Positions 13,935 to 62,669 of a stretch of DNA of 64,000 bases are shown piece by piece (position 1 is the first letter of the stretch; every line of letters begins with the position of its first letter). This DNA is from Syntrophorhabdaceae bacterium (lineage in GTDB: Bacteria > Desulfobacterota > Syntrophorhabdia > Syntrophorhabdales > Syntrophorhabdaceae), in assembly GCA_963665295.1 (NCBI GenBank), contig OY762209.1, forward strand, positions 480,001 through 544,000. Reading direction: 5' to 3'. The position numbers and the translations under genes are program-made. The notes below the pieces were generated by a model. It was not told the origin of the DNA. It made no database searches and saw only the letters and a list, made by a program, of their open reading frames with translations.

Positions 13935-14684
13935 TCACATTTCAAATCCGGAGATTACCTCCATGCCTGTGCCTTTGGCCATTTCTTTGAGCTTTTCGCC
14001 GAGGGCTTTAATCTGGGCCGTGCTTTCCCAGAAGGCTTCAGCGGCTTTCCGCATGTCTCCAGTTCCGTAATAACCGGCTTCATCATAAATCCTCGAATAG
14101 GCGACGTACCTTTCGGTAAGCTCGATGATTTTGCAGACCAGGATGTGAATCTTCACGCCTGCGTACTGCGTTTTGCAGAAGAATCCCTCATAGCCATAAA
14201 TGAGGTCAGGTGTATGGTCATATTGCTGATAGTCAGCGAGCTCCAAGCTGACCAGGTCGAAGACGAACTCGATGCCCTCACACTGAGGATGGACATTCAG
14301 CCATATCCCCTTAACCTTGGTATCGACGAAGAAATGTGGCTGCTCTCCGTTCCGAAATGCTTTGCGGACCTCTTCCGCATATTTGCTATCCGAAAATTTG
14401 AAGTAACCGTTGCACTGTCTTGAGACCATGGCCGGAAAAAATTCGATGCCTTCCTTCTCTACCTGTTCTTTGGTCGGTATGAATCCGAACCCGTAACCCC
14501 ACGAAGGACAAAGCTCACCTTTTATCTCCTTCTCGACGAGCCCGTGCTCCCAGCCAAGCTTCTCCGCTGTTTGTTGGAGTTCCGTGATAAGACTGTCAAC
14601 CGCTTCGAGACTCTTTGCCTTTCCCCTGTAATGAATTGTTATACCCATGGCCTTCCTCCTTTTGTTTTTAAGAACTGCTTTCAT
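13935..14684 (-). CDS. Hypothetical protein (MGITIHYRG...FCKTQYAG...DEAGYY type); likely start at MGIT
   Basis: Long ORF; an AGGAGG RBS precedes the internal ATG at 14648. Confidence 0.7.
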   Translation of the reverse strand: MKAVLKNKRRKAMGITIHYRGKAKSLEAVDSLITELQQTAEKLGWEHGLVEKEIKGELCPSWGYGFGFIPTKEQVEKEGIEFFPAMVSRQCNGYFKFSDSKYAEEVRKAFRNGEQPHFFVDTKVKGIWLNVHPQCEGIEFVFDLVSLELADYQQYDHTPDLIYGYEGFFCKTQYAGVKIHILVCKIIELTERYVAYSRIYDEAGYYGTGDMRKAAEAFWESTAQIKALGEKLKEMAKGTGMEVISGFEM

Positions 14685-14737
14685 GGTAGAGGAAGCGGGA
14701 AATGAAAAAAGACGGGCAATTATGCCGTCCGTGACAT
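14596..14737. repeat. Direct repeat copy 1 (~140 bp: upstream region + 5' end of the 13935..14684 gene)
   Basis: Near-identical to 19793-19934 (TCAACCGCTTCGAGACTCTTTGC...GAAAAAAGACGGGC...GTGACAT). Confidence 0.9.
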
Positions 14738-14899: not shown

Positions 14900-17800
14900 A
14901 TGGGAGATCAAGCAACCGGAATGAGTGCTTTCATCACCAGAGAGCTGGCAAAAGTTAGGGATGTCTATGTGACGGCTCCAGAGCGCATTATTGGCGACTA
15001 CAACACCGAGAATGAGAAAATCAGCGATTACAAGGGCAGGGAACTGCTAGAGATGTTGCAGAATGCCGATGATGAATCAGATATCGCACAAGACAAAGTT
15101 GCCTATATTGAACTTAAAGACGGTTTCCTAACAATTGCTAACAATGGTCAGCCATTCTCAGAGGATGGGGTTACCTCTCTGATTTATTCTCATCTCAGTC
15201 CAAAATATAAGCGTCAAAACAAGATCGGATCGAAGGGCACAGGCTTCCGTTCTATCCTCAGTTGGGCGAAACAAATTTTCATAAAGAGCTTAGACCTGTC
15301 TATTGAGTTTTCAAAGGAGAATGCAATCTCCTTCTTGAATGGCTTAGTCCTGGATAATCCAAATATTCGTCGATTTTTGGCTGAAAAGTCACCCTTTGCC
15401 GATCCTATAGCTATCCTTTTGACGCCAAAGTGGAAAGATACCGAGACCGGTACGTTCTCTGATTATGACACATACATAGTTGTTGAGCTTAAAGAATCCG
15501 TTGAAGCTGACGTTCAGCGGCAAATTGATGGTCTGGACAAAGAGGTTCTGCTTTTCCTTCACAATCTTCAACGCATCGTATTGAATAGTCCGGGAAGAAG
15601 AGAGGTCATCCGAAAGGAGCCGACGTACGATGGGAAGATAGAGATCAAAGTCGAGTCCATGGATGGGTCTTTCCTGAGCAATAGAACATGGCTTATTAAA
15701 GAGAAGCAAGGAACGTATGAGAATAGAAATTACGAGCTTAAGGTTGCGTACAATGAAGCCTTGGACGACTCAAAAAATATTCTATATTCCTATTTCAAGA
15801 CAGATGTCAGATTTCCCTTTCCTGCCGTCATCCATGGCACTTTTGAACTTACAGGAAATCGTAACCAGTTAACTCGCTCCGAAGTAAACAAATTTCTCTT
15901 AGGGGAACTCGCCCAGCTACTCATCGACGTTGCCCTGCAAATTGCCAATAAAGATACGGAACCGAGCTGGACGCCGTTCCGGCTCCTTTCCTTTACCTCC
16001 GGTTTTGATCAGGCTATAACCGACCTGGGGTTTGAGAATATCCTTTTAGAAAAAATCAAATCGAATAGGCTTTTCCCAACGGTCGTAGGCAACTACATCA
16101 CACATGCTGATAAACCAAAAGTGTACAGGAAGGATTACGCCGCTATTCTGCATTCTAAACCTCAATTTTCTAAGCTGACCATACATTCGGCAGATGAAAA
16201 TGTTTGGCGCCTTCTAAACCGATTGAGTTGGTGGAAGTATGATGCGCAATGGTTCTTCAGCCAACTCTCCGCCATCTCTAAGAGTTTCTCATTAGAGGGC
16301 CGTGCGAAACTTATCGTGTTCATACTCCAGGATTACGAGGAAGCCCTTAAAAGCATTCCCAAGGAAAAATTGCCAACATTATTTATGGACGATTCGGACA
16401 ACGTCATAGGGACTAACATTGAGGTTATCCTTCCTCCCGAGAAAGAAGCTTTCACAATTCCGAATTATGTTCATCTTCGATTTCTTAACGCTGAATTGTT
16501 TGAATATCTCTGCAGAGAACTAAATATAAAAGGCGCTCGTGCCCTAAGAGATAAATTGTCTGCCTTTGATGTTCAGGAATATAGTTTTGAAACGGTACTC
16601 AGGAGAGTTGTTGCTGGCACCAAAGAGCAAATAGAGAAGAAGAAAAGCAAGAAACTTAAGTACATAAGAACATTGGTTCAATTCCTGTGGCAATCATTTT
16701 CCAGGGGTAATGTATCGGACAACATCCCCAAGGACATAGATGTTCCATTGCTCAACCGATTTGAAGCAGTTGTGAGCGCGTCACGCCTGTATCTTGGTAA
16801 GGATTATGGCGATCAGGTCACAGAAAATCTTTTGAGAAACGTGGACAAGAAAATCTTCGTTGCTTCAGCAAAGCTGCTTGGCCTTGGTGATAAGGATGCC
16901 GACACCGTCAAACGATTCCTTTTATGGTTACGTGTCGCACAATATCCAAGGTTCCTGCAAAAGAGGTTCTCTCAGCCACAAGAGGCTGAATACGTGCATT
17001 TTGTCTATAACCAATTGGCCCGGCCCATAATCGTTGGTGACCTATCGTTTGATTCAGCTCAAGATCTCATTGACAGTTCCATCGGACACAGAACCTTTGT
17101 TGAAGTCGAGACAATAGAGTCCTTGGAGCAAATCCTAAATAAAGCCTTGACCGAAGACATATTACTGTGGCTGATCAAAGATCAAGCGATAGCTCGCATC
17201 ATTAGCGATAAGACAGAAAAAAATGCCAGTTCCAACTTTAAGATTGACTTCCACGGAAAGTCAAAGACAAGGTATCTTCGCAGCAACGGTATTTTCCCTT
17301 ATGCCCTCTGGGTCTTGAGAAGCAGGAAGTGGGTTAAGACCAAGAGTGAACGGCGAGTTGAACCAACGATATGTTGTCTTTCCAAAGCCATAGGTCCTGA
17401 CTTCTCTCCAATAATTGAAGCACCAGATGTTGACTATAACAGCAAGAAATTTGTCCAAGCTAAAGTAAGCCGCGAGGATATTGAACATCTTCTTGCGGCG
17501 GTGGGTGTAGCTTCCGACCTCACCAGATTTCCCACAGATACCATTTACTCTATTCTGCTCAATTTACCGGAGCTTGATGCGGCCGGGGACAAGGCAAAGT
17601 TAATATACAAGCAAATCATTGAGAACAGATCCAAGGATCAGATAGATCGCAGCAGCCCCGCTTATAAGCAGTTTCAAAAGGAGGGGAAAGTCTTGGCTAT
17701 ATTGAGCCAACAAAAGAGTTATAAGCCACTGCAAAGCGTTTACTACGTCGAAAATAGAACCTTTTGCCAAGACGTGATTAATCAGTTCCCTGTTCTTGAT

Positions 17801-19726
17801 CTTGACAAAAGGGTGGGCAAAGACAAGGTCAGGTCTGTGTTGGGCGTCAAACCCTTGGAAGAGGTTTCCTTTAGAGTCAAAGGCGAACCGAAGATTCATC
17901 CTCTCGGCATAGAGTTTGGGATAGATTTTGAGGAATTCAAACCCTATGTTTATGCATTAAGAGTGGAGAAGGACCCGAGGCATGCCCAGTTGTCAGCTCT
18001 GAAGCAAAGCAAAGTCACCCTGTGTACCGATGTGGCTGCCTCATATTTTTACAATGGCGAAGAAAGAGGATTTAGTGTGGAGTCTTATGAGCATATCTTT
18101 ATCAGCAAAGCCAACAACGTCTATTTGAAGGTAGAGGCCGATCTCCATAATTCGCTATCCGATTTTAGACGAGACATCCGGTTCTGCGAAACTGTTGCTG
18201 AAATAGTTTCCGGTCTTTTTAAGGTAGAAGAAAACAGAGAGACGATTGGCAATCTTTACTCCAGAGATGAACACCAAAGAAAGGAATTGCTAAGAATGCG
18301 GCTGGATGATGATGAATTGGTCAGTCTGGACCGCGCCTATAAATTACTGGAGATCACCACCGACCCTCAAAAGGATTTCTGGCACTGCGTCTATAGGGCA
18401 GCAAAACCCTCTTCCTCATTCCCAGAATTCACTGACGACGATAAACTCAAGGATCTCCTTCAGCACAACCTCCGCTTGGATGAATCGTTAATCGGCAGGC
18501 TCCTCAGAGACATAGATTATGATGACCTGAATTCGCCAACAAATCTGGCGATCATAATAGAACTTTTTAGAAAGATCGGGATCGATATCGCCGTTTTTAA
18601 CCAGCTTACTACGCGGACGCTGAACTTGACCGAGTATTATCGTGGACTGCTCGACGCTCTCAAGCATCGATACCAGCGACAATATGATAGTCATCTATAT
18701 ACGAAGCTAAAGAAAGAATCAGTAGAGAAGAAAAAGACATTTCTATTGGAGAAGTATAGATACGAAGAATTCGATGGGTTTGTGATTGAGAATTCGGTGG
18801 CATTTGTCCCTGAAGACTATTTCAGGTATTTACTGAAAGTAGAATTTGACTGCGACTTAACGGATATCGAAAACCAGCAAGTGATTGATTTGACCGAACT
18901 TTATAATGCTAACAAAGACAAATTGAAACAAGCATTGTTGGGTAAGCACCCCGTAACAACACATGCATATCTCGAAACGTTCTTGAACGATAAACGTTTC
19001 AGAAGCCTGATCTATTTTGGAGAAGCCGATTATCTAGAAAAAGAGTTTGCGGATAAGTACGGACACCAACCTGAAGCTATGCCTCAACCTCAAAGCAAAA
19101 CCATCGAATTCTATGGAAACAGAATACCATACCAAAGTCTGGAAAAGCTGGGAGCGGCAATTGGCGAGAACTTGCTCAGAAAAGACCTTCAGATTTTAAA
19201 CGTCACGCCTTGCGCAGTCGTATCGCTGGTGCAAAAGTCCGGAAAAGCCGGGACGAGCAGAAGTTCGGGCGCAAGGCCGCGCAGACCTAATGAAGAAACT
19301 GGATTCTTAGGCGAATGTACCGTTTATAGTCTGCTTACCCTCAAATATGGGAAGGAGAAAGTCTTCTGGGTGTCAGAGAATGCACTGAAAGCTGGAATCA
19401 ATGAGAATGGAAGCGAAGGCTTTCATTATGACATGCGGTACGTTGATGGCAGGGGCAAAACTATGTATGTCGAAGTGAAAGCGTCTGTCTCCAATGATCT
19501 GATTTTTCATATTACTCCTGAAGAAGTCGCATTTGCAGAAGAGAAGAAGGATGATTACGAGATATACTTTCTGCCGGGCATCAACAGTAGTGATGCAAAA
19601 GCTCTAAAAATTCCAGGATTATTCAGGTACAAGAAAGGAGAATCTTTTGCAAAGAACTCCAAGTTTTCAGTAGAAAACGATTCGTTTACAATTGAGTTCA
19701 GGCTCGGCGAGAAAGATAAGAAATAG
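14900..19726 (+). CDS. Sacsin-like GHKL ATPase fused to a C-terminal DUF3883/NOV-type PD-(D/E)xK nuclease domain
   Basis: ELLEMLQNADD, NNGQPF, IGSKGTGFRS, FPAVIHGTFEL at the N-terminus; GFLGE...YDMRY...YVEVKAS...FHITPEE at the C-terminus. Confidence 0.8.
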   Translation: MGDQATGMSAFITRELAKVRDVYVTAPERIIGDYNTENEKISDYKGRELLEMLQNADDESDIAQDKVAYIELKDGFLTIANNGQPFSEDGVTSLIYSHLSPKYKRQNKIGSKGTGFRSILSWAKQIFIKSLDLSIEFSKENAISFLNGLVLDNPNIRRFLAEKSPFADPIAILLTPKWKDTETGTFSDYDTYIVVELKESVEADVQRQIDGLDKEVLLFLHNLQRIVLNSPGRREVIRKEPTYDGKIEIKVESMDGSFLSNRTWLIKEKQGTYENRNYELKVAYNEALDDSKNILYSYFKTDVRFPFPAVIHGTFELTGNRNQLTRSEVNKFLLGELAQLLIDVALQIANKDTEPSWTPFRLLSFTSGFDQAITDLGFENILLEKIKSNRLFPTVVGNYITHADKPKVYRKDYAAILHSKPQFSKLTIHSADENVWRLLNRLSWWKYDAQWFFSQLSAISKSFSLEGRAKLIVFILQDYEEALKSIPKEKLPTLFMDDSDNVIGTNIEVILPPEKEAFTIPNYVHLRFLNAELFEYLCRELNIKGARALRDKLSAFDVQEYSFETVLRRVVAGTKEQIEKKKSKKLKYIRTLVQFLWQSFSRGNVSDNIPKDIDVPLLNRFEAVVSASRLYLGKDYGDQVTENLLRNVDKKIFVASAKLLGLGDKDADTVKRFLLWLRVAQYPRFLQKRFSQPQEAEYVHFVYNQLARPIIVGDLSFDSAQDLIDSSIGHRTFVEVETIESLEQILNKALTEDILLWLIKDQAIARIISDKTEKNASSNFKIDFHGKSKTRYLRSNGIFPYALWVLRSRKWVKTKSERRVEPTICCLSKAIGPDFSPIIEAPDVDYNSKKFVQAKVSREDIEHLLAAVGVASDLTRFPTDTIYSILLNLPELDAAGDKAKLIYKQIIENRSKDQIDRSSPAYKQFQKEGKVLAILSQQKSYKPLQSVYYVENRTFCQDVINQFPVLDLDKRVGKDKVRSVLGVKPLEEVSFRVKGEPKIHPLGIEFGIDFEEFKPYVYALRVEKDPRHAQLSALKQSKVTLCTDVAASYFYNGEERGFSVESYEHIFISKANNVYLKVEADLHNSLSDFRRDIRFCETVAEIVSGLFKVEENRETIGNLYSRDEHQRKELLRMRLDDDELVSLDRAYKLLEITTDPQKDFWHCVYRAAKPSSSFPEFTDDDKLKDLLQHNLRLDESLIGRLLRDIDYDDLNSPTNLAIIIELFRKIGIDIAVFNQLTTRTLNLTEYYRGLLDALKHRYQRQYDSHLYTKLKKESVEKKKTFLLEKYRYEEFDGFVIENSVAFVPEDYFRYLLKVEFDCDLTDIENQQVIDLTELYNANKDKLKQALLGKHPVTTHAYLETFLNDKRFRSLIYFGEADYLEKEFADKYGHQPEAMPQPQSKTIEFYGNRIPYQSLEKLGAAIGENLLRKDLQILNVTPCAVVSLVQKSGKAGTSRSSGARPRRPNEETGFLGECTVYSLLTLKYGKEKVFWVSENALKAGINENGSEGFHYDMRYVDGRGKTMYVEVKASVSNDLIFHITPEEVAFAEEKKDDYEIYFLPGINSSDAKALKIPGLFRYKKGESFAKNSKFSVENDSFTIEFRLGEKDKK

Positions 19727-19792: not shown

Positions 19793-19934
19793 TCAACCGC
19801 TTCGAGACTCTTTGCTTTTCCTCTGTAATGAATTGTTATACCCATGGCCTTCCTCCTTTTGTTTTTAAGAACTGTTTTCATGGTAGAGGAAGTGGAGAAT
19901 GAAAAAAGACGGGCTTTTATACCGCCAGTGACAT
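19793..19934. repeat. Direct repeat copy 2; truncated pseudo-copy of the 5' end of gene 13935..14684
   Basis: Encodes MGITIHYRGKAKSLEAV, then similarity stops abruptly at ~19793. Confidence 0.9.
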
Positions 19935-20322
19935 GTTCAAATAAGAATTTTGTCTTCGGCTTTCGATTTCCAGAGTCTAGGACTAATGCAAACGCTTGCC
20001 CAGCGCTATCTACTGATGTCTCATAATGCTCGCAAAGTTTACCTTGAGGACATTCCTTTCGTGATGCCCAAAATGACTATGAGACGACACTGCGCCAATC
20101 CTCCTCCCCTCTCGACTTTGATAACTCTTGTGGGGACAGTGCGCATTTCGAGAAAACTTTGATGGATTGTGCTGGACATTCAAAATCACAAGTGATAATA
20201 ATCAGTTTTGTAAATGCTCTGTTTGCGGCAGACTTGTTGGCGTTCAGAATAAAACGGTGGTATCCCTTTTGTCGGAACCATTTAGTTTGATACATTTAAT
20301 CAATTACGATTGAGATGACAAG

Positions 20323-21807
20323 ATGAAGCTTCAGAATATTCAGAATCGAATAAACGAACTAATGGCCATTTTCGTTGCCCAGGTCAAAGGCGCTACCGCT
20401 ATGGGAAGAACCGACATCAATCGGGTATCTGAGACGGTCTTAATACCTCTCCTCTCGGAAGTGTTCGGCTATCAAGCCCTTAAGAATCTCAACTACACTG
20501 AAGAGGAAAACTATCCTGGGATTGATCTCGGAGACGAGCAGGCCCGAGTCGCCTTTCAGGTGACCAGTACAGCCAGCATCGAAAAAGTAAGGGAAACTCT
20601 TATAAAATTCGTACGGTACCGGCTTTACGAAAAGTACGATCAGCTATTCATGTATATTCTGACGGAAAAACAGAAATCTTACTCGGACAAAGGTCTTTCC
20701 GAAATACTTGAAGGAAAATGCTCTTTTGACGTTTCAAGACAGATTCTTGATTATCAAGATATTCTAAGGGCAATAAGCGGTTTCCAAATCGAAAAGGCAC
20801 TTTCTGCATGCAGTATTTTGGAACGAAACCTTAGCTATACGCCTCACCTTCTAGAACATATCACTAATCAAACGTATGAACCGCTTGAGGGTGGAACTGA
20901 GACAGTATATCTCAACCTCGTGGAGGTATCCTTTCCAGATATCTTGTATATCGGAAATCTACCGTCTTTGCCAACCAAGAAACAGGAAAAGAATCGGAGA
21001 TGGAAGGGCCTCAAACCCAAATCCCAGAGAGACGCCGTGCGAGAGAAACTCCTCGAACTCGGACTACGATTCGGCACCGATTGGGAGACTTTCGGGAAAA
21101 GGATAATCACTTTTCATAACCTCTCGAATGACGCAATCCCCTTAGCCCAAGTTGTGCTGCCCGAAAGTGTATCAGCTACTTCAACACTTGATTTCTATTC
21201 AGTTGACGAGGATCACGACAGGGTTTTCAAGTCTTTGTTGCGAAGATGTCTTCAGCAAAAGCTTTATCACCGTGGTATACAATGGCAAAACGATAAGAAC
21301 CTCTTTATCTTTGTAAGCAAAGATGGCGAAGATCATCGGGAAGAACACTGGGTAGGAAGTAAATCGAGTGAACGCGTCGTGTTTGAGAGGACAAGAAAGA
21401 CAAAGAAGCCCGATGAGACGTGGTACTGTAAGCACCTGGCTTTCGCTTCTCGCTTCTATTGCATCGATCACCAATGGTTCATGGCCGTAAAGCCGGATTG
21501 GTTCTTTAGTCGAGACGGCTATAGTGAATCTTTTTATGCTGCGCAAAAAGTCAACTGGCTTAAAAAGAGAGAAAACAATGAGCATCTCTACAATCAATTT
21601 CGGTTTATATGCTATTTTGTGACACACGATGACATTCCTAATCTTTTCGAAAAAGACAGAAGATATCCTTACCTGTCATTTGGCAATGCCGTCGCCTTCC
21701 AATCTTACCCGGAGTTGAACGATGATGTATGGAACCCTCCGAAATCGGATGGCGAGGATGAAGACCTGGATGATGCAGTGTCACAAATGAGTCTGTTTGA
21801 TTTATGA
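20323..21807 (+). CDS. SMEK-domain (REase-like) protein fused to an APAZ-like domain; partner of short pAgo
   Basis: N-terminal DINRVSE...NLN...NYPGIDLGD...AFQVTS is the SMEK signature. C-terminal HLAFASRF...WFMAVKPDWFFSRDG...KKRENN...FRF is APAZ-like. Its TGA overlaps the pAgo ATG (ATGA). Confidence 0.75.
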   Translation: MKLQNIQNRINELMAIFVAQVKGATAMGRTDINRVSETVLIPLLSEVFGYQALKNLNYTEEENYPGIDLGDEQARVAFQVTSTASIEKVRETLIKFVRYRLYEKYDQLFMYILTEKQKSYSDKGLSEILEGKCSFDVSRQILDYQDILRAISGFQIEKALSACSILERNLSYTPHLLEHITNQTYEPLEGGTETVYLNLVEVSFPDILYIGNLPSLPTKKQEKNRRWKGLKPKSQRDAVREKLLELGLRFGTDWETFGKRIITFHNLSNDAIPLAQVVLPESVSATSTLDFYSVDEDHDRVFKSLLRRCLQQKLYHRGIQWQNDKNLFIFVSKDGEDHREEHWVGSKSSERVVFERTRKTKKPDETWYCKHLAFASRFYCIDHQWFMAVKPDWFFSRDGYSESFYAAQKVNWLKKRENNEHLYNQFRFICYFVTHDDIPNLFEKDRRYPYLSFGNAVAFQSYPELNDDVWNPPKSDGEDEDLDDAVSQMSLFDL

Positions 21808-23231
21808 AGATAGATACTTTTGATGAACCACTCCTTGAATTTGGCACCGGCACACATTTGTGTCCGAGAGCCGGTATTGCCATGCACTCAGCTTACGACA
21901 CCAGAATGGCGGTTAGAAGAGAACGGATTTTGGTAGGAGCGGTTGGAATAACCGATCATCTGACGAAGTTAATGGAATGGCTCGATAGATGTTCACGGCC
22001 TATACCAGGAAAGATGAACTCTACGAAACCAAATCTCTTTCCAGGTTTCTGTGGATTCAATCGAAATATTGGGTTCAAGGCAGAATTTATAATCAACGAT
22101 GAGATTACTCGCTCACTAAGTCTCTCAGAGGTCAGACGCATTACAAAGACGAAAAATCGCCAGTCATGTGTCAATGACGCCGTGGAATTATATTATCGTC
22201 AGGTAGAGTTTCTAGCTCAAAACAGAGCTGTCGACGTCATAATTTGCATTTTGCCCTCAAAACTGTATGGCAAAATCGTAAGAGAAGGTCTGGAAAAAGC
22301 TGAGATAGATCTCGAAGAAGAACAGTTGGAAGATGATATCTTAGAGGCTAATTTCAGACGCGCCCTTAAGGCCAAGACAATGCATCTGGGTAAGCCTATT
22401 CAGATCATGCGGGACCTGTCCCTGGAGTCTAACCCGAGAACCCAGCAAGATGATGCAACAAAAGCATGGAACTTCTGTACCGCTCTCTATTATAAGGCTA
22501 ATCAAACAGTTCCATGGAAACTTATCACAAATGTAAACAGACCTCCAATCTGTTTCGTCGGCATCGGTTTCTACCGCAGCCGCGACGGCAAGAGTTTGCA
22601 CACGAGTCTTGCTCAAGTCTTCGACGAATTGGGGAATGGAGTAATCCTCAGAGGAACACCGGTTAAGCTGGACAGAGAGGATAGAACGCCACACCTTACT
22701 GAAGAGCAAGCTTCCACTCTTCTTGAAAGAGCGCTTTGTGAATACCAGGCCGCGATGGACAACCTGCCCGGCAGAATAGTCGTTCACAAATCCTCCAACT
22801 TTAATGAGTTGGAATTGCAAGGCTTTCGAAATGCTACTGACCAAGCCCGAGTCAAATCGGTTGATTTTGTCACGGTCATGGAAACAAAGCTAAGACTCTT
22901 GCGCGGAGGGATATACCCGCCTTTTCGAGGGACTTATATCGAGCTGGATGCAACAACACACATTCTTTACACACGAGGATCTGTCAATTACTATCAAACT
23001 TACCCCGGCAAATATGTTCCCCAGCCTCTGGAAATACGGATCGTCGAATCAGATGAGTCGCCGGGACTGATCTGCAGAGAAATTCTTGGGCTAACAAAAA
23101 TGAACTGGAATAATACACAGTTCGATGGCAAATATCCGATTACAATAGAATGCGCAAGAAAGGTCGGTCAAATAATGAAATACGTAGACGAAAACGAGAA
23201 GCCACAAATTCGCTACAGTTTTTATATGTAA
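21804..23231 (+). CDS. Short prokaryotic Argonaute (MID-PIWI), catalytically inactive
   Basis: EPLLEFG start, MID residues RRALKAK...IQI...ALYYKA, PIWI CFVGIGFY and VVHKSS (catalytic Asp positions replaced), LTKMNWNN...PITI, and YSFYM C-terminus. Confidence 0.92.
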   Translation: MKIDTFDEPLLEFGTGTHLCPRAGIAMHSAYDTRMAVRRERILVGAVGITDHLTKLMEWLDRCSRPIPGKMNSTKPNLFPGFCGFNRNIGFKAEFIINDEITRSLSLSEVRRITKTKNRQSCVNDAVELYYRQVEFLAQNRAVDVIICILPSKLYGKIVREGLEKAEIDLEEEQLEDDILEANFRRALKAKTMHLGKPIQIMRDLSLESNPRTQQDDATKAWNFCTALYYKANQTVPWKLITNVNRPPICFVGIGFYRSRDGKSLHTSLAQVFDELGNGVILRGTPVKLDREDRTPHLTEEQASTLLERALCEYQAAMDNLPGRIVVHKSSNFNELELQGFRNATDQARVKSVDFVTVMETKLRLLRGGIYPPFRGTYIELDATTHILYTRGSVNYYQTYPGKYVPQPLEIRIVESDESPGLICREILGLTKMNWNNTQFDGKYPITIECARKVGQIMKYVDENEKPQIRYSFYM

Positions 23232-23242
23232 GATGGCCCCAC

Positions 23243-23355
23243 ACAAAAAAAGACTCCGCCTGTTTCTTTGAAAACAAACGGAGCCAGGGTCGAAGGGTCA
23301 AAGCTGTGAGCCAAGGACTCAAAACTCAAAGAGCTACTTGCGACGAAGGAACACC
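23243..23355 (-). repeat. Conserved 3' tail of DGR-target-like genes, with hairpin (copy 1; others at ~24023-24145 and ~24571-24640)
   Basis: Shared CGCAAGTAGCTCTTT..AG..CTTGG..CTTTGACCCTT..; copies 1 and 2 also share the GTTTGTTTTCAAA.AAACAGGCG hairpin. Confidence 0.75.
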
Positions 23356-23840
23356 CACCGGTTGTCAGCATACCAGAAGCTGCCAGAATAGCCATAACTG
23401 CCGCCGAGACACAGGCCGTCGTCATCGTGTACGACGCTGGACCGCGTCAGGCAGCCATCGGAGTCCATGATGCTGTCCATGGCTATAAAAAGAGCTTCTC
23501 TTTTTGGTTGTTCGGAATATTGGAGACGCAGTTGTGGGCCGACTTCAGCGGGACAGATGTCCCCAATCTTCTTGATGCGCCTATCGATGTTGCGGTAATA
23601 TGCGCCATCTTTAAATCCGAGTTCGGCGGTAGTTGCCGTCATCAGCTCGACTTCTTTTTGTTCCCGGCTCAGGGTGACTTTGCTCAAAATGTCGCCCGCC
23701 CATTCGCCGACTTTGAATCCGTTTTTCTCCAGAGCTTCGCGGAGTTCGGGAATCGATTTGTAGATTCCCAGCTTGATGGTCTTCCAGGTTGGAAGATCGC
23801 AAATGCTTTCATACAGTCCACTTTCGACCTTTCTAATCAT
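23334..23840 (-). CDS. DGR-target-like protein (C-type-lectin-like variable C-terminus), copy A
   Basis: GGAGG RBS before ATG 23840; CPAEVGPQLRLQY core; C-terminus DSDG...HDDDGLCL...FWYADNRWVFLRRK resembles CPR DGR variable proteins. Confidence 0.7.
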   Translation of the reverse strand: MIRKVESGLYESICDLPTWKTIKLGIYKSIPELREALEKNGFKVGEWAGDILSKVTLSREQKEVELMTATTAELGFKDGAYYRNIDRRIKKIGDICPAEVGPQLRLQYSEQPKREALFIAMDSIMDSDGCLTRSSVVHDDDGLCLGGSYGYSGSFWYADNRWVFLRRK

Positions 23841-24022
23841 GACAAACCTCCTCTTAATTGAGATATGCCGCTTCATAGCAGCCTTGGAGGAACTTCGAGA
23901 AATTCCCTGAAGGATGCCATGAAATTGTGAGGAGTATGACATAAAGGGGCTTTCCTGAAGCTGAACCCCCTATTGTACACCTAATCCATATTTTGTCAGT
24001 ATCTGAAATCAAAGAGCATTTG

Positions 24023-24614: not shown

Positions 24615-25088
24615 CTACTTGCGGCGGCGAAGAAACACCCACCGGTAGTCACCAGTCCAGAAATCGCCCGGGTGACCAAGGCTGCCGTCGAGCCACAGAA
24701 CGCCGTCATCGTGCCCGACGCAGAACCGTCGCAGGCGGCCGCCGGAGCCCGAAATGGGGTTCATAGTAATGAAGTTCCGTTCATCCTTTGGCTGGTCCGG
24801 GTACTGGAGACGAAGTTGCGGCCCGACTTCAGCGGGACAAACATCGAATCCCAGCCCCTTAATACGCTTCTCGATGTCGCAGTAACGGGCTCCATCTTTG
24901 AAGCCGAGTTCGGCGATGGTAGCCGTCACCAGCTCGATTTCTCTTTCTTCGGGGCTCAGACTGACTTTGCTGAGAATGTCGTCCGCCCAGTTGCCGATTT
25001 TGAATCCGCCTTTGCTCAAAGCTTCGCGGAGTTCCGGAATCGACTTGTAGGTGCCGAGCCTAATAGGCTTCCAAGTGTTGAATATCAT
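24615..25088 (-). CDS. DGR-target-like protein, copy B
   Basis: Paralogue of 23334..23840; C-terminus GSGG...HDDGVLWL...FWTGDYRWVFLRRRK. Confidence 0.7.
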   Translation of the reverse strand: MIFNTWKPIRLGTYKSIPELREALSKGGFKIGNWADDILSKVSLSPEEREIELVTATIAELGFKDGARYCDIEKRIKGLGFDVCPAEVGPQLRLQYPDQPKDERNFITMNPISGSGGRLRRFCVGHDDGVLWLDGSLGHPGDFWTGDYRWVFLRRRK

Positions 25089-25576: not shown

Positions 25577-28500
25577 TTAGGGAGCCACCTCCTTCCAATT
25601 CATGTTCCTATATCTGTCTGCATAACAACGAGCTGTTTCCCCTCCGCATACTCCGCTGCAGGTCCAGGTCCAAGACAATTTCGATGTTTGAGGATTGGAG
25701 CTTCCGCCAAAACTTGAACATAGTTCTGAGTCTGGTTTTGTTTTCCATTCTTTGTGCGTAGCATCACCGCATTGTCCGTCAACTGAAGGCTGGAGACCAT
25801 GGCAATCTTGGGTTTGTGGAGAAGTAGGACAAGCAACGCCTCCGTATTGTGGATAAACAGAAACTGTTATGTCTCTGGTTTGTGTTCCAGTTTGATTAGC
25901 ACAAAGAGCAGTACAAGTGTGCCAGTTTGACCAGGTATATTGGCAGTCGATAGGACACTGTCCTACCCAAGTGCTATGAGGAGGGACGCAATTGTTAAGA
26001 TCATACAGGGAAGCCCACCCTGTCTCGGTGCAAGTCGGAAGTCCTCCCCAATACCAGTTTGGCTGTTTAGTTCCGGTACAAGAACTCACTGAATTTGATT
26101 TATATATTCCGTTTCCATTGATGTTGTAGCAATAGTTTCCGGAATCACTGCAATCGAGAGGACATTGACCAACCCGAACGTTTCTTGGTAATTCACAGCT
26201 ATTCAAATCGACTTGGCTTGCCCATCCTGTCTCGGTGCAAGTCGGAAGCCCTCCCCAATACCAGTTTGGCTGTTTGGTTCCAGTGCAAGAACTCACTGAA
26301 TTTGATTTATATACTCCTCCGCTCGCGCAATATTTTCCCGAGTCGCTGCAGTTAAGGGGGCATTGTCCTACCCAGACGTTTCTATTATTAGGCACGACAC
26401 ACCGATTACTATCAATTTGAGTCATCCAGCCGGTTTCGGAACAGCTTGGAAGAGGAGGTGACCAATTTGATTGTTTGATTCCGGTGCAGCTCACACACGC
26501 ATCTGATTTATATACTCCGCTATTAGCGCAATGACTGCCAGAGTCATTGCAGTTCATTGGAGATTTTGTTCCCCAGGTAAGTTTTCCCTCATTTCTGCAA
26601 TTTCCTGTTTGAGAAAATTGCTGGCAAGTCAGATAATCTGAAGCAGGAGGAGACCAAGACCAACTAGAATTCTCTTTGCAAGTTCCTCCACAACCATCGG
26701 ATTCTCCCCCACAAGTATTAGAAGGACAATATGGGGTGCAAGTTACCGTATATGGTATTTTTATTGGCGTATAGGTAAACTTGGTATTTGGACACAAGTT
26801 TTGCGTTCCAAGTCCATAAAAATTTACATAATATGTACCGGGAGTCGTGGAAACATTTCCAGTTGAAGATCCGAATTCGCTCTTTACATTAGCGCATGCT
26901 TGTTGTGAATTCTTTATCGTACATGTTCCATTGACACATTTAGCACAAGCAACGGCGCCGTTATTGCCGTAATTTGACTTGAGACAATCCGGTCTAACGC
27001 TGGCAGGCCTGCAATCTCCCAAACGGCTAGTGTTTATATTACTATAATTAGGAAAATCCGTTAGAACTCCTGCATGAGTATACCCATTGCAGTAACCAGA
27101 CCCTTGTTCTATCCTTCCGTAAACCGTCAAAGAAGCGCCAGGGCTTAGATTAGTGCTGCTAAGATTCACAGTATATGTAGCATTGTCAGCATAAAGCGTT
27201 TCTGCTTTCGCTTCGCTGAAAAACAAGAGAAAGCTTACAGTAGAAACGACAAATAGGACGGCGATACTACTTCGGTTATTTTTCTTCTTTTTAATGATAA
27301 AAACTATCACAACAATCAGAATTAAAGCTGACAATCCAAAAACAAGAAGCGTCGCTGATTTTCCAGAAGATTCATTTAAGCTGTTTTTTTCGTCTGCTAC
27401 AGGACCTCCCCCACCCATAAAATTAAACTCGACTTCATCCAAAACTTTTCCATCGCTATCTTTAATCTGAGCGAAAATGTGAGGATTTTGACAATCAGAA
27501 GTAATCGGAATAGTTAAGTCTTCTATATTTTTCGCCAGATCTAATTCTTTGCTGAAATCATCAGAGCAAGAATTTCCTTTTGAACTTTTGGTTGAAACAC
27601 TGAAAAAAAGCTCGCCAGTTCGAATGCTTTCCCCTCTAGAGATAAAGGAAGAATTAGGCGGTGAATTCCAATAAAGAAACACCTTGGCATTTTCTCCTTT
27701 TTGATAATAATTTTTGTCTACTCTTAGATTTTTGATAGTAACACTTTTCCCTTTTGTAATATACTGAAACGATAACTCGTTAGAAACCTTCCGAACCGAA
27801 TTACTTTTATCCAAGAATGACAACTTTATTCCATATACTTGAGGAATAGAAATGTTCTTAATAACAAAGCTTTTTTCATTCTCTCCCGGATTCAAGATAA
27901 TGGCGTCTTGCTTTTCGTTTTCTATTATCTTTCCAAAAGTGGAATATAGATAGGTTTCAAAATATGGCACTACAGATATGGAATTCTTGAAGTTATTTTT
28001 AATTCTGCACTCCAGGGACAGTTCTTCTTCTTGGCTGACGCTTATTGCATAGCCCAAGGGATATTTGTTTCCATCACCTTCCACCAGAAAATTGCAGGCA
28101 TCAGGAGCAATTTCGACATATTCTCCATTTCCGGTGAGATGAATCTCTCCTGCCATATTCATTCCAAGAGACAAACCTTTGTCGTTTTCGGAAATTATCC
28201 ATACTTGATAGTTCCCATTCAAATAATCCGGAATTGTGTAGGCTATTTCTTTGTGAATTGTTTCATTTTGTCCCAGATTTACAGTTTCTTCATAGACTTC
28301 TTCATCAACAATGCCGGAACTTTCTTTTTCAACAAGCTGGACGGCATATTTAACATTTGGCTGAATTTCTTCCCTGTTGGACAAGTCAAAAGACAGTTTC
28401 ATCTCATTGCCGTTTTGAGAGACTATTTTTGCATCGTAGATATTGACAGTAGCCACGATAACAGCTTCACTTTTTTCTGCTTGTTTTGAATCAGCATTAT

Positions 28501-28618
28501 CAAATAAAATGGGGTTTTCTTCCTGCGCTTTGGCCTCAAATCCTGAGAGAAACAGGAAAAGTGAGGCAGAGACGAAGAATGTCGTCTTTAAAAAATGCGC
28601 ACGGTTTCGGTTTTTCAT
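25577..28618 (-). CDS. Large cell-surface protein: signal peptide, beta-rich ectodomain, two TM segments, Cys-rich repeats, TSP1-like domain
   Basis: Signal ending AKA; hydrophobic segments around aa 425-470; three CSDSG..C...YKS...CTGTKQPNW repeats; DCQYTWSNWHTCTALC..GTQTR..GGVACP; ends NWKEVAP. Confidence 0.8.
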   Translation of the reverse strand: MKNRNRAHFLKTTFFVSASLFLFLSGFEAKAQEENPILFDNADSKQAEKSEAVIVATVNIYDAKIVSQNGNEMKLSFDLSNREEIQPNVKYAVQLVEKESSGIVDEEVYEETVNLGQNETIHKEIAYTIPDYLNGNYQVWIISENDKGLSLGMNMAGEIHLTGNGEYVEIAPDACNFLVEGDGNKYPLGYAISVSQEEELSLECRIKNNFKNSISVVPYFETYLYSTFGKIIENEKQDAIILNPGENEKSFVIKNISIPQVYGIKLSFLDKSNSVRKVSNELSFQYITKGKSVTIKNLRVDKNYYQKGENAKVFLYWNSPPNSSFISRGESIRTGELFFSVSTKSSKGNSCSDDFSKELDLAKNIEDLTIPITSDCQNPHIFAQIKDSDGKVLDEVEFNFMGGGGPVADEKNSLNESSGKSATLLVFGLSALILIVVIVFIIKKKKNNRSSIAVLFVVSTVSFLLFFSEAKAETLYADNATYTVNLSSTNLSPGASLTVYGRIEQGSGYCNGYTHAGVLTDFPNYSNINTSRLGDCRPASVRPDCLKSNYGNNGAVACAKCVNGTCTIKNSQQACANVKSEFGSSTGNVSTTPGTYYVNFYGLGTQNLCPNTKFTYTPIKIPYTVTCTPYCPSNTCGGESDGCGGTCKENSSWSWSPPASDYLTCQQFSQTGNCRNEGKLTWGTKSPMNCNDSGSHCANSGVYKSDACVSCTGIKQSNWSPPLPSCSETGWMTQIDSNRCVVPNNRNVWVGQCPLNCSDSGKYCASGGVYKSNSVSSCTGTKQPNWYWGGLPTCTETGWASQVDLNSCELPRNVRVGQCPLDCSDSGNYCYNINGNGIYKSNSVSSCTGTKQPNWYWGGLPTCTETGWASLYDLNNCVPPHSTWVGQCPIDCQYTWSNWHTCTALCANQTGTQTRDITVSVYPQYGGVACPTSPQTQDCHGLQPSVDGQCGDATHKEWKTKPDSELCSSFGGSSNPQTSKLSWTWTCSGVCGGETARCYADRYRNMNWKEVAP

Positions 28619-28681
28619 ATTGTTGTTTTTGATTAACTTGTTAACTTATTTAAAAACTAAAGAAATTTCTTGAAAATGGTT

Positions 28682-31600
28682 CTAATGAATAATCAGCCAG
28701 TTGAATTTGATGTCGTCTTTGTAGGGCTCTCCGTCCAGCCTGACGGTGAAGCTCTTCCCATCGTCTATATCATCCTTATTTACGTATATGCTTTCGCCAC
28801 CCGAAGAACCCGTGAGGGTGACAAATATCTTGGCGTTCTGTGTGGCTTGAGTCGTGTTGATGATCACCTTATCGTCGCCAGCTTTGATCACAGCGCTTCC
28901 AGAGGAAGGGTCAGCGACTTGCCCGGAATCCGTTCTTTGGTCCGAACTGCCCAGCACTATCGATTTTGTCTTGACCACCTCCGCTTCGACGCTTTTTGCC
29001 GTGACTGTCGCTTCGGGAAGGGTGAGGTTTCCGGAAGGGTCGAGGTAAATCAGGGTCTTGGGGTTTAGGGCCAGGAGCAGACTGGTGTTGGCGTCGGTCT
29101 GGGCTTTGATGTCGGCTAATTGAGATTGAAGCTGATTGATCAAAGTCTGCTGGGAATTCATTTGGTTCACCGATTCGCTGATCACCTGATCAACTGATTC
29201 ACTGTTAACATCAGCGACTTTGTTTATTGTTTCGGTGACCTCTAATTTGACGTCGCCGATCTTGACCTCGCTTATGCCCGATAATTTGAAATATACTCTC
29301 ATGTAATTGAGGCTCGTCCAGTCGATCTCGCCGGTCTTTATTCCTTCAGAAATATTAAGTCTTATTTCATTCCAGCCGCTTTGGAGGATCTGATGGTTTG
29401 CGGTGTTCCATTGGACTTCCTTGGTGTCTCTTTGGTTTCCGAGTTCGGTGGCAAAGTCAGTGATACTGGCGGGATCTTCTATGTATAGGTTGTATATCAG
29501 GTGGCCGTCCTGAATGTCATAGCCGGAAACATCCATTCCGGGCGGGTTGATGGTTATTTCATTATATGCATCAGGAGTGGTGCAGTCTCCGCTAAGAGTA
29601 TTATTGGAAGCTTGAAGATTGGTGAGAGTGGAAGTGATGTAATCTGTGGTTTCAAACTCTTGGAAAGTGATTTCTTTGGTCTGAGTGATGGTCTGAGCTT
29701 GGGATGCCGGATTCTGGAGAGACGCGATCTTTTCTTCGAGCGAATTGACCTTGTCTTCAAGTCCGGCAATCTGCATCTGATACGGATCATTTTCAATTCT
29801 TTCTTCCAAAGTGTTAATCTGTCCGGTGAGAATCGAATATTTTTCAGTGATTTCAAAATTGATATCGGAAATTTCTGAATCAGTATTTTTTGACAAAGAA
29901 TTCAAACTTGTAATTTCAGTCTTTTGACTAATCTGCTTTAGGTTTAATTCTTTGATAGCATTTATCATTGTATAGAAAATTGGCCCTTGGGTAAGAGTGA
30001 GATAACCGTTTTGAGATCCGACTGCTTCTGGAATTAGCTTTTGAACATCTTGAGCCATAACTCCGATTACTTCCTGATCATCGGTTATTCCCAATTTTGA
30101 GTTATCCTTATAACGGAAATATACCGGATTTAAAGAAGCTATTTCATCCAAACCTCTTGAAAATGAACCTTCAACATTTTTGAGATTTTTGTCGGAATAA
30201 CTATGCACTCCTCCGTCGTGGGTGTAGATGTCGGTGGCTCGGGCATTGCCGTTGACGTCAAGAAGATAGGTTGGAACAGTTGTTCCAATTCCCACGTAGC
30301 CGTCGCCTGTCCAAGAAAGAGCGGGTGTCATCGCGGAAGCGTTTCCGGGAGACGTCATTGTTCCGAGCCCCCATCCCCCTGTTCCTGTTTTTGTTGTAGC
30401 TCCGATGGCTCCGTATAGAGATCCTGCGGAGGTCATTCCATACGATGCATTTCCTGGAGTATTTGGAGAGTAAACCATTCCACCATCAATTTGGAGTTTA
30501 ACAGCCGGCCCCGTCGTTCCTATCCCGACGTTACCGCTAGGATCAATTCTCATCTGTTCTGCGAGGCCAGCTACTCCGTTAGCTCTTGTGAAAAATGCCA
30601 GATAGGACGCATAGTTTCCCCCCGTAGAATTCCATTTTCCCCCCTTAATGCCGGCATAATTAAGTGCACCGGAAAAAATTATTGAACCACCTGTATCCTT
30701 CGCCTGAGTAGCAGTATCTCTTAATATAAGTTGGGTATTTCCTATGCCACTTAAAACTTGATTTGCTCCATCAACTTCCAAATTGGTTCCTATATCTGTT
30801 GTTCCGATTCCGACGTTGCCGCCGTCTTGGATCACGACGCTTGAGCTTGAAAAAGCGGAATTGCTGTCCATAAATCCCAAATCGCCTGCCGAGTTTATTC
30901 CCAATTGCCAGGATTCTCCTCCACTGTTTTCTTCGAGATTGAGAGCTTTACCGGTGGAATCAGAAAGTATTCCTACTTGTCCGTAATTCCCAGTAACTCC
31001 TCCGACATCCAATTTTCCTTGCGGTAAGGTTGTTCCGATGCCGACGTAGCCGCCGTTTAGGATTGTAACTTCTGGGCTATTATGGCCCAACATGATTGGG
31101 GCTGTTTCTCCATAATTTGAAATTACAAGCGAATAGGCTGGTACCGAAGAGAAAACATAATTACCAGAACTGTTTTCTTTTCCGATATACCCACGATGAT
31201 TCCCGTTGTTCGGAAAAAATATCGATTGAGAGGTTGATGTCGAAGGGGAGGATTGTACGTCACCAACCACTTCGAGTTTGACAGTTGGATTCGTCGTTCC
31301 GATGCCGACATTGCCGTCACCTGTCCAGGAAAGAACGGGTGTCATCGCGGAAGCGTTTCCGGGAGAAGTCATTGTTCCGAGCGCCCATCCTCCTGTTCCT
31401 GTTTTTGTTGTGGCTCCGATGGCTCCGTATAAAGATCCTAGGGAGGTCATTCCATACGATGCATTTCCTGAAGTATTTGGAGAGTAAACCATTCCACCAT
31501 CAATTTGGAGTTTAACAGCCGGCCCCGTCGTTCCTATCCCGAGGTTACCGGCAAAAACTCCGTATCCAGCAGTCAAATCAACATTATATCCCACCGACAG

Positions 31601-52770: not shown

Positions 52771-53298
52771 ATGGCAGAATTTTTGAATTCGTTGTTCAGA
52801 GGATTATTCGGCAGTCCGTCTGAAGCACCCCGGCAGGACACTGCGTTACCCGGAAGACATCCGGTCCGTTCCATCCGGAACGAAAGGCTTCTCAATGAGA
52901 TCATGATGATCGCCCCGAGATTCAGCCAGAACGGAGGGGTGTACTACGACGAGCACAACTTCGACTGGATCATGATTCCCAAGTACGCCCTGCCGGAACG
53001 GTGGGAGGAGAGATGGTGTAAGCTCCTTATTATACCCCCCGCAGGCTATCCGAGCATGCCTCCTATCGGCTTTTATCTCAACCAAAAATTTCACCTCAAA
53101 ACGGGTGGCCACGACCCTCACAACACCAGCACCGCTTACCATGGGGCACCCGACCTTCTGCATAGTGGCTGGCACTGGTACTGCGTTACCGTGGCAGACG
53201 GGCCGGGCGGCTGGCAGCCATCGGTCGATTACCGCGAAAAGGACAATCTCTGGACGTTTCTTAATATGGCCAGAGAAACCCTTACCAACGACTTTTGA
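52771..53298 (+). CDS. Prokaryotic E2/UBC-like protein
   Basis: WIMIPKYALPERW...LLIIPPAGYPSMPPIGFY...GWHWYC...WQP...DNLWTFL. Confidence 0.8.
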   Translation: MAEFLNSLFRGLFGSPSEAPRQDTALPGRHPVRSIRNERLLNEIMMIAPRFSQNGGVYYDEHNFDWIMIPKYALPERWEERWCKLLIIPPAGYPSMPPIGFYLNQKFHLKTGGHDPHNTSTAYHGAPDLLHSGWHWYCVTVADGPGGWQPSVDYREKDNLWTFLNMARETLTNDF

Positions 53299-53309
53299 AG
53301 GAGGCACAA

Positions 53310-62139: not shown

Positions 62140-62595
62140 GCTAGAGTGAGAGAGATTAACAACCTCAAATGGGAAGATGTTAACCTGGATGAAGGATACC
62201 TTGTCCTCAAGACGCGAAAAGCCAAGAACTCTGACGTGGTTTCGAGGAAAATTCCTTTAGTGCCGACTATTAAGAAGATACTCGAATCAATGGATAAGGG
62301 AAACGAGTATGTCTTTGTTAACCCTGTTACCAAAACCAGATACGATTACAGGGACAAGTTTCTCCCGAACCTTTGCAGGAAAGCGGAGGTACGGCCTTTC
62401 ATGTATCACTCACTGAGGCACTACGGAGCATCAAAACTCGCTCACTCTGGCGTACCCTTGACAGACATTCAAGAGCTTCTTGGCCACCAGAGAGCCACTA
62501 CCACCGATATATACCTTCAGAGCTTGAAAAACAGTCTGAGGGAATCCATTAACAAACTCGACTTCCCCCAAAATTTCCCCCAAGACTAAAAGAAA

Positions 62596-62669
62596 TGCGC
62601 CCAGCAGGAATCGAACCTGCAACCTTTGGATTCGAAGTCCAGCACTCTATCCAATTGAGCTATGGGCGC
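62596..62669 (-). tRNA. tRNA-Arg(TCG); CCA not encoded; probable integration site
   Basis: GCGCCCATAGCTCAATTGGATAGAGTGCTGGACTTCGAATCCAAAGGTTGCAGGTTCGATTCCTGCTGGGCGCA folds as a cloverleaf; its 3' end lies 6 bp from the integrase stop. Confidence 0.95.

Follow-up and report, generated by a model that had tools for sequence, protein, structure and literature searches.

The stretch of DNA analyzed here, a 64,000-nucleotide window of contig OY762209.1 (positions 480,001 to 544,000; assembly GCA_963665295.1, Syntrophorhabdaceae bacterium), contains a gene for a SMEK-APAZ effector protein (open reading frame (ORF) 1) followed by a gene for a short prokaryotic Argonaute (pAgo; ORF2). A preliminary description, made from the letters of the window, had proposed that the two ORFs are coupled through an ATGA overlap. 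Both frames were found to be open at the coordinates given in Table 1, the overlap is present, and ORF1 starts at the same methionine as its homologues. The motif PGIDLGD...FQVTS, which had been singled out in the effector, lies at amino acids (aa) 65-82 of ORF1. Contigs from two public runs span positions 19845-23500 with zero differences or gaps; these runs are possibly the source sample and hence do not count as independent support for this interval. Read from the sequence, the effector and Argonaute genes make up an intact, translationally coupled immune module of two genes.

The effector protein

The N-terminal part of ORF1 matches the Pfam family SMEK_N (PF21941) at aa 9-151 over the full length of the model (E 2.1e-44), and the protein also matches NCBIfam NF033859. 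The PADLOC model Aga_REase-PNTD1-PNTD2 (PDLC02399) spans aa 1-481 (E 2.1e-151). The best sequence match in the PDB is 26bh_D (aa 7-165, E 9.4e-30); DREN-APAZ chains come next and align to aa 234-476. According to its entry title, 26bh is the Mrr domain of the Kordia jejudonensis Mrr-APAZ pAgo system, and the entry shows that work on the Kordia Mrr effector is under way. A profile of 119 sequences recovered 26bh at positions 7-171 (E 3.2e-44), DREN-APAZ chains (E 2.6e-28) and, additionally, the HNH-APAZ chain 9om4_A. DUF4365 (DREN) was not found in ORF1 by Pfam at E ≤ 0.1, and the DREN-APAZ matches are confined to the APAZ part.

Conservation within the N-domain points to a candidate active site. 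E37, D68, Q79 and K88 are invariant in 119/119 full-length homologues and in 61/61 N-domains. T81, which stands at the canonical lysine position, is found in all 119 full-length homologues and in 60 of the 61 N-domains. In the alignment, 26bh carries identical residues at all five positions. The motif is therefore D...QxT plus a lysine conserved in the helix that follows, and K88 may stand in for the canonical lysine that T81 replaces. The aspartate of IDLGD, named in the preliminary description as a catalytic candidate, is the invariant D68.

The AlphaFold2 model of the effector (mean predicted local distance difference test score (pLDDT) 90.2) consists of two domains, a low-confidence linker at aa 174-187 and a loose C-terminus; the N-domain modeled alone reached a pLDDT of 92.7. 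In a VIA-align comparison, the top match of the N-domain was LlaBIII residues 12-165 (Z 8.4, root-mean-square deviation (rmsd) 3.3, 124 aligned residues), and we take this N-terminal part of LlaBIII to be a Mrr-family nuclease. Further nuclease matches, at Z 6.2-7.4 and interspersed with unrelated helical proteins, were FokI (7.4), NucC (7.0), Avs4 1-175 (6.8), AspBHI (6.3), BspD6I and MspJI. The secondary structure of the model and the LlaBIII match are those of a PD-(D/E)xK (Mrr-like) fold. The earlier reading of a PD-(D/E)xK-like effector is thus upheld both by the homology to 26bh and by the structural matches to nucleases of this kind. 26bh was absent from both structure searches (Foldseek and VIA-align, libraries up to April 2026). 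No DREN domain appeared among the 50 VIA-align rows for the N-domain, which does not exclude likeness to DREN.

The C-terminal part of ORF1 is an APAZ domain by sequence and by fold. It matches the DREN-APAZ chain 9jsb_D in the PDB sequence search (E 5.8e-12) and superimposes on 9qcc_I with a template modeling score of 0.84 by target and an rmsd of 3.5 (Foldseek). With the effector model, Foldseek ranked the APAZ chains of SPARDA first (E down to 4e-20), then those of SPARHA and SPARTA. The preliminary description had read a SMEK-like N-terminus and an APAZ-like C-terminus, and had named the lack of an APAZ match as an outcome that would speak against it; PF21941 and the APAZ chain matches agree with its reading. 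Of 42 effector proteins between 400 and 560 aa long, 39 have a net negative charge over their last 25 aa. The preprint 10.1101/2023.09.23.559129 reports that S2A/S2B partners end in an acidic tail with an inhibitory role, and by analogy the tail of the window effector is probably an auto-inhibitory element.

The short Argonaute, its clade and its distribution

The PADLOC model pAgo_I covers ORF2 over its full length (E 5.4e-180). The protein has MID and PIWI only, lacks the DEDX tetrad and is co-encoded with an APAZ protein, as is general for short pAgos. Matches to PDB Argonautes ranked SPARDA first (E 5e-87 to 3e-78), followed by SPARHA (1.5e-65, 9om4_B), SPARTA (5e-33 to 4e-28) and SPARSA (2e-25); the system names are taken in part from entry titles. 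The residues of the guide 5′-phosphate pocket, R185, K189, Q200 and K231, are invariant in 41/41 Argonautes (the window protein and those of 40 loci). The guide contacts R183, K187, K240, N181, F182, Q224 and N232 of NbaAgo align to R185, K189, K231, N183, F184, Q215 and N223, respectively. The pocket tryptophans W159 and W201 of NbaAgo are replaced by V159 and R203 in the window protein. At the tetrad positions the window Argonaute has G255, S330 and R452, and the 41 sequences have S/G/A, S/T and R/K. These positions were placed with the PIWI motif and the NbaAgo alignment. With such residues the PIWI domain is therefore inactive, and the inactive MID-PIWI short pAgo of the preliminary description stands.

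A quick maximum-likelihood tree was built from 55 Argonautes, without KjAgo, HNH or SIR2 rows. Three loci with an incomplete Argonaute (L016, L064 and L065) and three with split or partial genes (L097, L099 and L101) were left out. The neighbor of the window Argonaute in this tree is an Anaerolineales protein with 68% identity. Both lie in a clade of 45 rows (support 99), whose partners are SMEK (41 rows), EAD8 (3) and DUF4062 (1). All 41 SMEK-partner Argonautes, two of them from Bacteroidota-related hosts, fall in this clade. The five DREN-partner rows are its sister (joint 50 rows, support 96), and four TIR-partner rows stand apart from the SMEK and DREN group (support 100). Placement in the short-pAgo phylogeny, which the preliminary description had suggested as a check, thus gives clade S2B, on a SMEK-partner branch sister to the DREN partners, and the PDB ranking agrees.

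The N-terminal Mrr-like domain homologous to the Kordia effector further narrows the assignment. From its sequence, the pair is of the SPARMA type (a SMEK/Mrr-APAZ protein with a short pAgo of clade S2B), an already named and thinly studied type. Kim, Jung and Lim reportedly tested Kordia jejudonensis KjAgo with its Mrr-APAZ partner in vitro in 2020. SMEK is described as the database name of the "Mrr-like" effector of clade S2B, with 175 proteins counted and a Mrr-like topology as opposed to the Hjc-like DREN. KjAgo and SMEK-APAZ are reported to form a heterodimer with weak collateral activity on double-stranded and single-stranded DNA, and SMEK is placed there among the SPARDA nucleases (PMC12205087). 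The Kordia system was named SPARMA in a preprint that puts it on a branch different from SPARDA and finds the apo form monomeric (10.1101/2025.04.08.647717). PMC9097488 labels the Kordia partner DUF4365-APAZ, at odds with 26bh and with the papers published afterwards. Related literature on short pAgo systems and SMEK-type effectors includes PMC6299218, PMC12738770, PMC12663957 and PMC13618286.

The preliminary description had instead proposed an effector distinct from all characterized short-pAgo partners, which would make the pair a new system. The missing DUF4365 match and the separate clade of SMEK-partner Argonautes agree with that view, as does a 2026 review that lists SPARTA, SPARSA, SPARDA and SPARHA and mentions neither Mrr, SMEK nor Kordia. 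Against it stand the direct match to the Kordia Mrr domain, the SPARMA name in print, the full-length PADLOC models, the 175 proteins under the SMEK name and the tested KjAgo system. A new class is accordingly very improbable, and the claim of an uncharacterized effector was not borne out. The same description held that an N-terminus within characterized SPARDA families would count against it; this applies in the broad sense, as SMEK has been counted among the SPARDA nucleases, and does not apply in the narrow one, the domain being distinct from DREN/DUF4365.

The organization of the pair is widely conserved. At E ≤ 0.001, a protein search gave at least 399 homologues comparable in length. Identity in the top 120 of these, the window's own protein apart, is 44-53%, and all 120 contain PF21941. 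From 396 stretches of a genome collection that matched, 80 loci were retained; of these, 38 have SMEK, APAZ and pAgo, 5 have APAZ and pAgo with another N-domain, 3 are ended by the contig and 34 have SMEK only. An Argonaute is present in 43/43 APAZ loci with downstream DNA. The 4-base gene overlap recurs in 29 of the 38 complete loci, and the SMEK and APAZ matches lie within one ORF in 37 of them (L064 and L072 look broken). Such recurrence of the Argonaute and of the overlap speaks against a chance arrangement. No conserved third gene was seen, no neighbor occurring in more than 3 of the 38. A larger operon with an upstream TmtA-like gene or SIR2-HerA was considered and rejected: across the 80 loci, TmtA gave one 106-aa match and SIR2-HerA occurred at one locus. 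Six plasmid records contain at least 80% of the effector, and in all four that were opened the Argonaute gene adjoins it. No virus was found to carry the whole effector; the 34 matching loci of a viral collection cover the N-terminal part, up to aa 233 at most.

Pfam scans of 15 SMEK-only proteins found NACHT/AAA-type NTPase families or WD40 repeats in 12 and SMEK alone in 3, which makes SMEK a portable effector. A tally by eye of NACHT/AAA or repeat domains in the Pfam matches came to 13 of the 15, 12 of them with an NTPase family. Large STAND NTPases of cyanobacteria, Poribacteria and Chloroflexota, encoded at the SMEK-only loci (L021-L075), begin with a SMEK domain 47-61% identical to that of the window and carry TPR, WD40 or HEAT repeats. 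This sequence identity suggests recent effector exchange between Argonaute and Avs-like systems.

Within the same clade, other domains take the place of SMEK. At four cyanobacterial loci (L016-L019), EAD8 (PF19961) replaces SMEK on APAZ, with a score below the Pfam cut-off at L019, and the EAD8-partner Argonautes nest within the SMEK clade (three tree rows). A gene for EAD8 and a trypsin-like peptidase adjoins the pair in 3/3 loci with flanks; L018 starts 108 bases upstream of the gene. L017 additionally carries an EAD8-NB-ARC-TPR gene. A protein search gave eight more close APAZ proteins, with EAD8 in 6 of 7 scanned (four above cut-off; proteins only). Two metagenome scans added no EAD8 locus: the first found none, and the second gave four loci, namely two SMEK-APAZ, one without the N-terminus and L140. 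In one literature search, no paper linking EAD8 with Argonaute, APAZ or trypsin was found. In general, EAD domains recruit effectors by pairing like with like. EAD8-APAZ, its pAgo and EAD8-trypsin may form a protease-coupled short Argonaute. This arrangement is a more valuable lead than the window pair and, if real, would be an Argonaute with proteolysis as its output. At L062:5033-7823, a locus from Bacteroidota that falls in this clade, DUF4062 (PF13271) is fused to APAZ before the Argonaute, which represents another effector swap.

The island and its other genes

The pair and the window around it lie in an integrative island at tRNA-Arg(TCG). Two copies of a 46-bp repeat bracket about 68 kb that includes the pair, and two tyrosine integrase genes lie near the left copy. 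The host genome (5.5 Mb) has 54.7% G+C, and the effector and Argonaute genes have 44-45%. The island cargo comprises AbiEi/AbiEii, a type III restriction-modification pair, an SNF2 helicase, SIR2-HerA, a TmtA-like protein, the SMEK-APAZ/pAgo pair, an E2/ThiF pair and relaxase/coupling genes. The Argonaute is single-copy in the host genome. It had no match in 3/3 same-genus genomes searched, and among 30 relatives matches occurred in two, both distant (30-34%). Island position and patchy occurrence fit horizontal gain of the pair as island cargo. Sigma-70-like sites number 10 in the region 5′ of the pair as against 4.9 ± 2.4 in shuffles, and the promoter call in Table 1 is no evidence of function.

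Table 1. Features of the gene pair, its island and related loci (coordinates without a prefix are those of the window)
Feature	Position	Strand	Basis or remark
SMEK(Mrr-like)-APAZ effector, ORF1, 494 aa	20323..21807	+	ORF call, PADLOC match, AlphaFold2 model
SMEK / Mrr-like PD-(D/E)xK-fold nuclease domain, aa 1-172	20323..20838	+	PF21941, PDB 26bh
Candidate active-site codons	E37 (20431), D68 (20524), Q79 (20557), T81 (20563), K88 (20584)	+	alignments
APAZ (N-L1-L2-like) domain, about aa 188-475	20884..21747	+	resembles DREN-APAZ, HNH-APAZ and TIR-APAZ chains in sequence and fold
Acidic C-terminal tail of effector	21730..21804	+	net charge -7 over last 25 aa; putative auto-inhibitory element
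ATGA stop/start overlap	21804..21807	+	sequence
Short prokaryotic Argonaute, MID-PIWI, clade S2B, ORF2, 475 aa	21804..23231	+	PADLOC pAgo_I, PDB matches
Possible sigma-70-like promoter 5′ of the pair	20173..20202	+	10/12 consensus positions; weak
Attachment-like 46-bp repeat, 3′ end of tRNA-Arg(TCG), right island border	62593..62638	-	45/46 identical to G000:C1:474678-474723
tRNA-Arg(TCG)	62596-62669		
Integrative island at tRNA-Arg(TCG)	window 62593-62638; G000:C1:474678-474723; L136:5014-8474		repeat, integrase, relaxase and coupling-protein genes
EAD8-APAZ loci (Nostoc carneum plasmid and other cyanobacterial records)	L016:4519-7125; L017:5632-12375; L018:109-2837; L019:4521-8330		

Several other features of the window were observed. 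Upstream of the pair, a 142-bp direct repeat (92% identical, at 14596-14737 and 19793-19934) flanks the 1608-aa TmtA-like gene at 14900-19726, a Sacsin-like ATPase / NOV_C protein with a full-length PADLOC TmtA match (1202 bits). The repeat includes the start of a 249-aa gene (13935-14684), of which the second copy yields a truncated start; weaker copies exist elsewhere in the genome. The arrangement resembles a scar left by insertion or cassette exchange. Downstream, two small paralogues without a Pfam match (23334-23942 and 24615-25088, minus strand, about 74% DNA identity) each have a common 24-53 bp repeat on the downstream side. The region 25577-42622 encodes two proteins, each single-locus in the host genome: one of 4646 aa has 34 GNVGIGT repeats and Peptidase_S74, and the other, of 1013 aa, has cysteine-rich repeats and a TSP1-like match. 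These two presumably resemble giant Patescibacteria surface proteins and would be odd cargo for a 5.5-Mb host. At 52771-54809, a Prok-E2_E-like and ThiF/E1 gene pair adjoins mobilization genes and is a possible ubiquitin-like conjugation module.

Proposed mechanism and known systems

That the pair belongs to the Kordia-type group is far better established than how it works. It is likely, in our judgment, that the pair provides abortive infection through a guide-activated collateral DNase. The co-translated proteins would associate one to one, with APAZ contributing the N-L1-L2 lobe missing from the short Argonaute, and the MID pocket would load a 5′-phosphorylated RNA guide sampled from transcripts. 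Once the guide pairs with matching single-stranded DNA from a plasmid or phage, the acidic tail would be displaced and PIWI rearranged. The complexes would then oligomerize, so that the tethered Mrr-like domains meet as an active metal-dependent nuclease (E37, D68, Q79 and K88 for T81), which would cut DNA without sequence specificity and leave the cell dead or dormant. Gene structure, domain identity, conserved residues, two-gene organization and clade come from the present analysis. The heterodimer, the use of an RNA guide on a DNA target and the weak collateral DNase are drawn from the Kordia reports, and tail release, oligomerization and abortive infection from analogy with SPARDA and SPARHA.

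Several observations favor this mechanism. The N-domain is homologous to the Kordia Mrr domain and has PD-(D/E)xK nucleases among its top structural matches, its candidate active-site residues E37, D68, Q79 and K88 are invariant and the RK-type pocket matches the NbaAgo contacts. The tree puts the Argonaute in the SMEK-partner clade next to the DREN partners, and weak collateral DNase activity is reported for the Kordia heterodimer. SMEK is also the effector of STAND NTPases and of Lamassu LmuA, both of which are triggered by oligomerization. The pair also sits in a defense-island setting with AbiE, type III restriction-modification, SIR2-HerA and TmtA.

Other observations weigh against it. 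Secondary accounts of the Kordia work differ between "RNA-guided target DNA cleavage" and "weak collateral nuclease activity." The likeness to Kordia was established for the Mrr domain, the Kordia APAZ and Argonaute sequences lying outside the comparison. By alignment count, 0/6 PIWI-PIWI filament residues of NbaAgo are identical in the window Argonaute (E253/V244, F256/P247, R285/L276, R287/N278, K324/Q315 and E360/K351, NbaAgo first), and filament formation is therefore not transferable residue by residue; a different interface chemistry is possible. The effector has a threonine where the canonical lysine after Q79 is expected, for which K88 may substitute. Just one VIA-align Z-score exceeds 8. 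The Foldseek comparison suggested in the preliminary description retrieved APAZ chains with the full model; with the N-domain model alone, nothing in the PDB reached E ≤ 0.001.

Some of these points would also be expected if the nuclease acted in cis, the Argonaute bringing the Mrr-like domain to guide-matched DNA that is cut at or near the target while the cell survives. The account of RNA-guided target cleavage with weak collateral activity in Kordia, the divergent filament positions and the FokI-type cleavage domains among the structural matches (Z 7.4) fit such a role, which would provide a programmable targeted nuclease. However, the well-studied DREN and HNH sister systems of S2B are described as cleaving collaterally, and the long flexible linker at aa 174-187 resembles the tether of the DREN systems. 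Models of all chosen systems in 10.1101/2025.04.08.647717 suggest possible filaments, and AlphaFold models, including one of the Kordia system minus its Mrr domain, mostly took filament-like interfaces according to that preprint. Cutting in cis is thus unlikely.

We regard a weak or degenerate DNase domain (QxT for QxK), which acts on RNA or another substrate or leaves protection to binding by the complex alone, as quite improbable. The universal T81 of the full-length homologues, the weak activity reported for Kordia and the moderate structural matches are compatible with this possibility. In contrast, SMEK domains linked to pAgo and to STAND proteins alike keep E37, D68, Q79 and K88 without exception, as a live active site would, and the Kordia system is reported to have nuclease activity.

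Compared to collateral cutting by the Kordia-type complex, a further proposal is more speculative and, in our view, doubtful. The D..QxT..K site, the changed 5′-nucleotide pocket and the absence of the Nba filament residues might, within the SPARMA type, set the SMEK effector apart from SPARDA and SPARHA, with another guide preference and non-filament or target-proximal cutting, in a clade that in cyanobacteria also appears to swap its output to an EAD8 adaptor recruiting a trypsin-like protease. If true, the different cutting mode would be suited to programmable DNA detection or targeting.

The window pair is genuine and complete, and an ordinary representative of its class. Its value as a discovery is small, since the gene pair, clade, name, defense-library model, in vitro study and domain structure already exist. 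It is useful as material: it is an intact copy, and Mrr/SMEK has received far less study than SPARDA or SPARHA. In the literature searched, which excluded most subscription papers, no in vivo or activation study of this effector class was found, and Mrr/SMEK is the only S2B nuclease effector of which this holds.

Compared to known systems, the pair shares most with SPARMA of Kordia. Both have the same effector domain, with identical motif residues, and the same layout of SMEK-APAZ and short pAgo. Their sequences are distant, as well under half of the aligned N-domain residues are identical, and host and island differ. SPARDA (DREN/DUF4365-APAZ and short pAgo; Nba, Tmu, Xau and Eae) is the sister within S2B and provides the closest solved Argonautes and APAZ domains. 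The window pair resembles it in the RK-type MID pocket, the PD-(D/E)xK-superfamily effector and the acidic tail. In contrast to the Mrr-like window effector with its D..QxT..K motif, the SPARDA effector is an Hjc-like DREN with D41/Q60/K62; the Nba tryptophans replaced in the window Argonaute belong to a 5′-A pocket, and the filament residues differ as well. SPARHA (HNH-APAZ and short pAgo) also belongs to clade S2B and is matched by both proteins of the pair, but its effector is HNH, a domain that Pfam did not find in the window effector. Outside the Argonautes, the same SMEK domain (aa 1-171 in the identity range given above) is fused in Avs-like STAND NTPases to NACHT/AAA-TPR/WD40 sensors, and SMEK is listed as an effector domain of Lamassu LmuA. 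In STAND and Lamassu systems the sensor is a protein- or DNA-end-sensing ATPase, whereas in the window pair it is a guide-loaded Argonaute.

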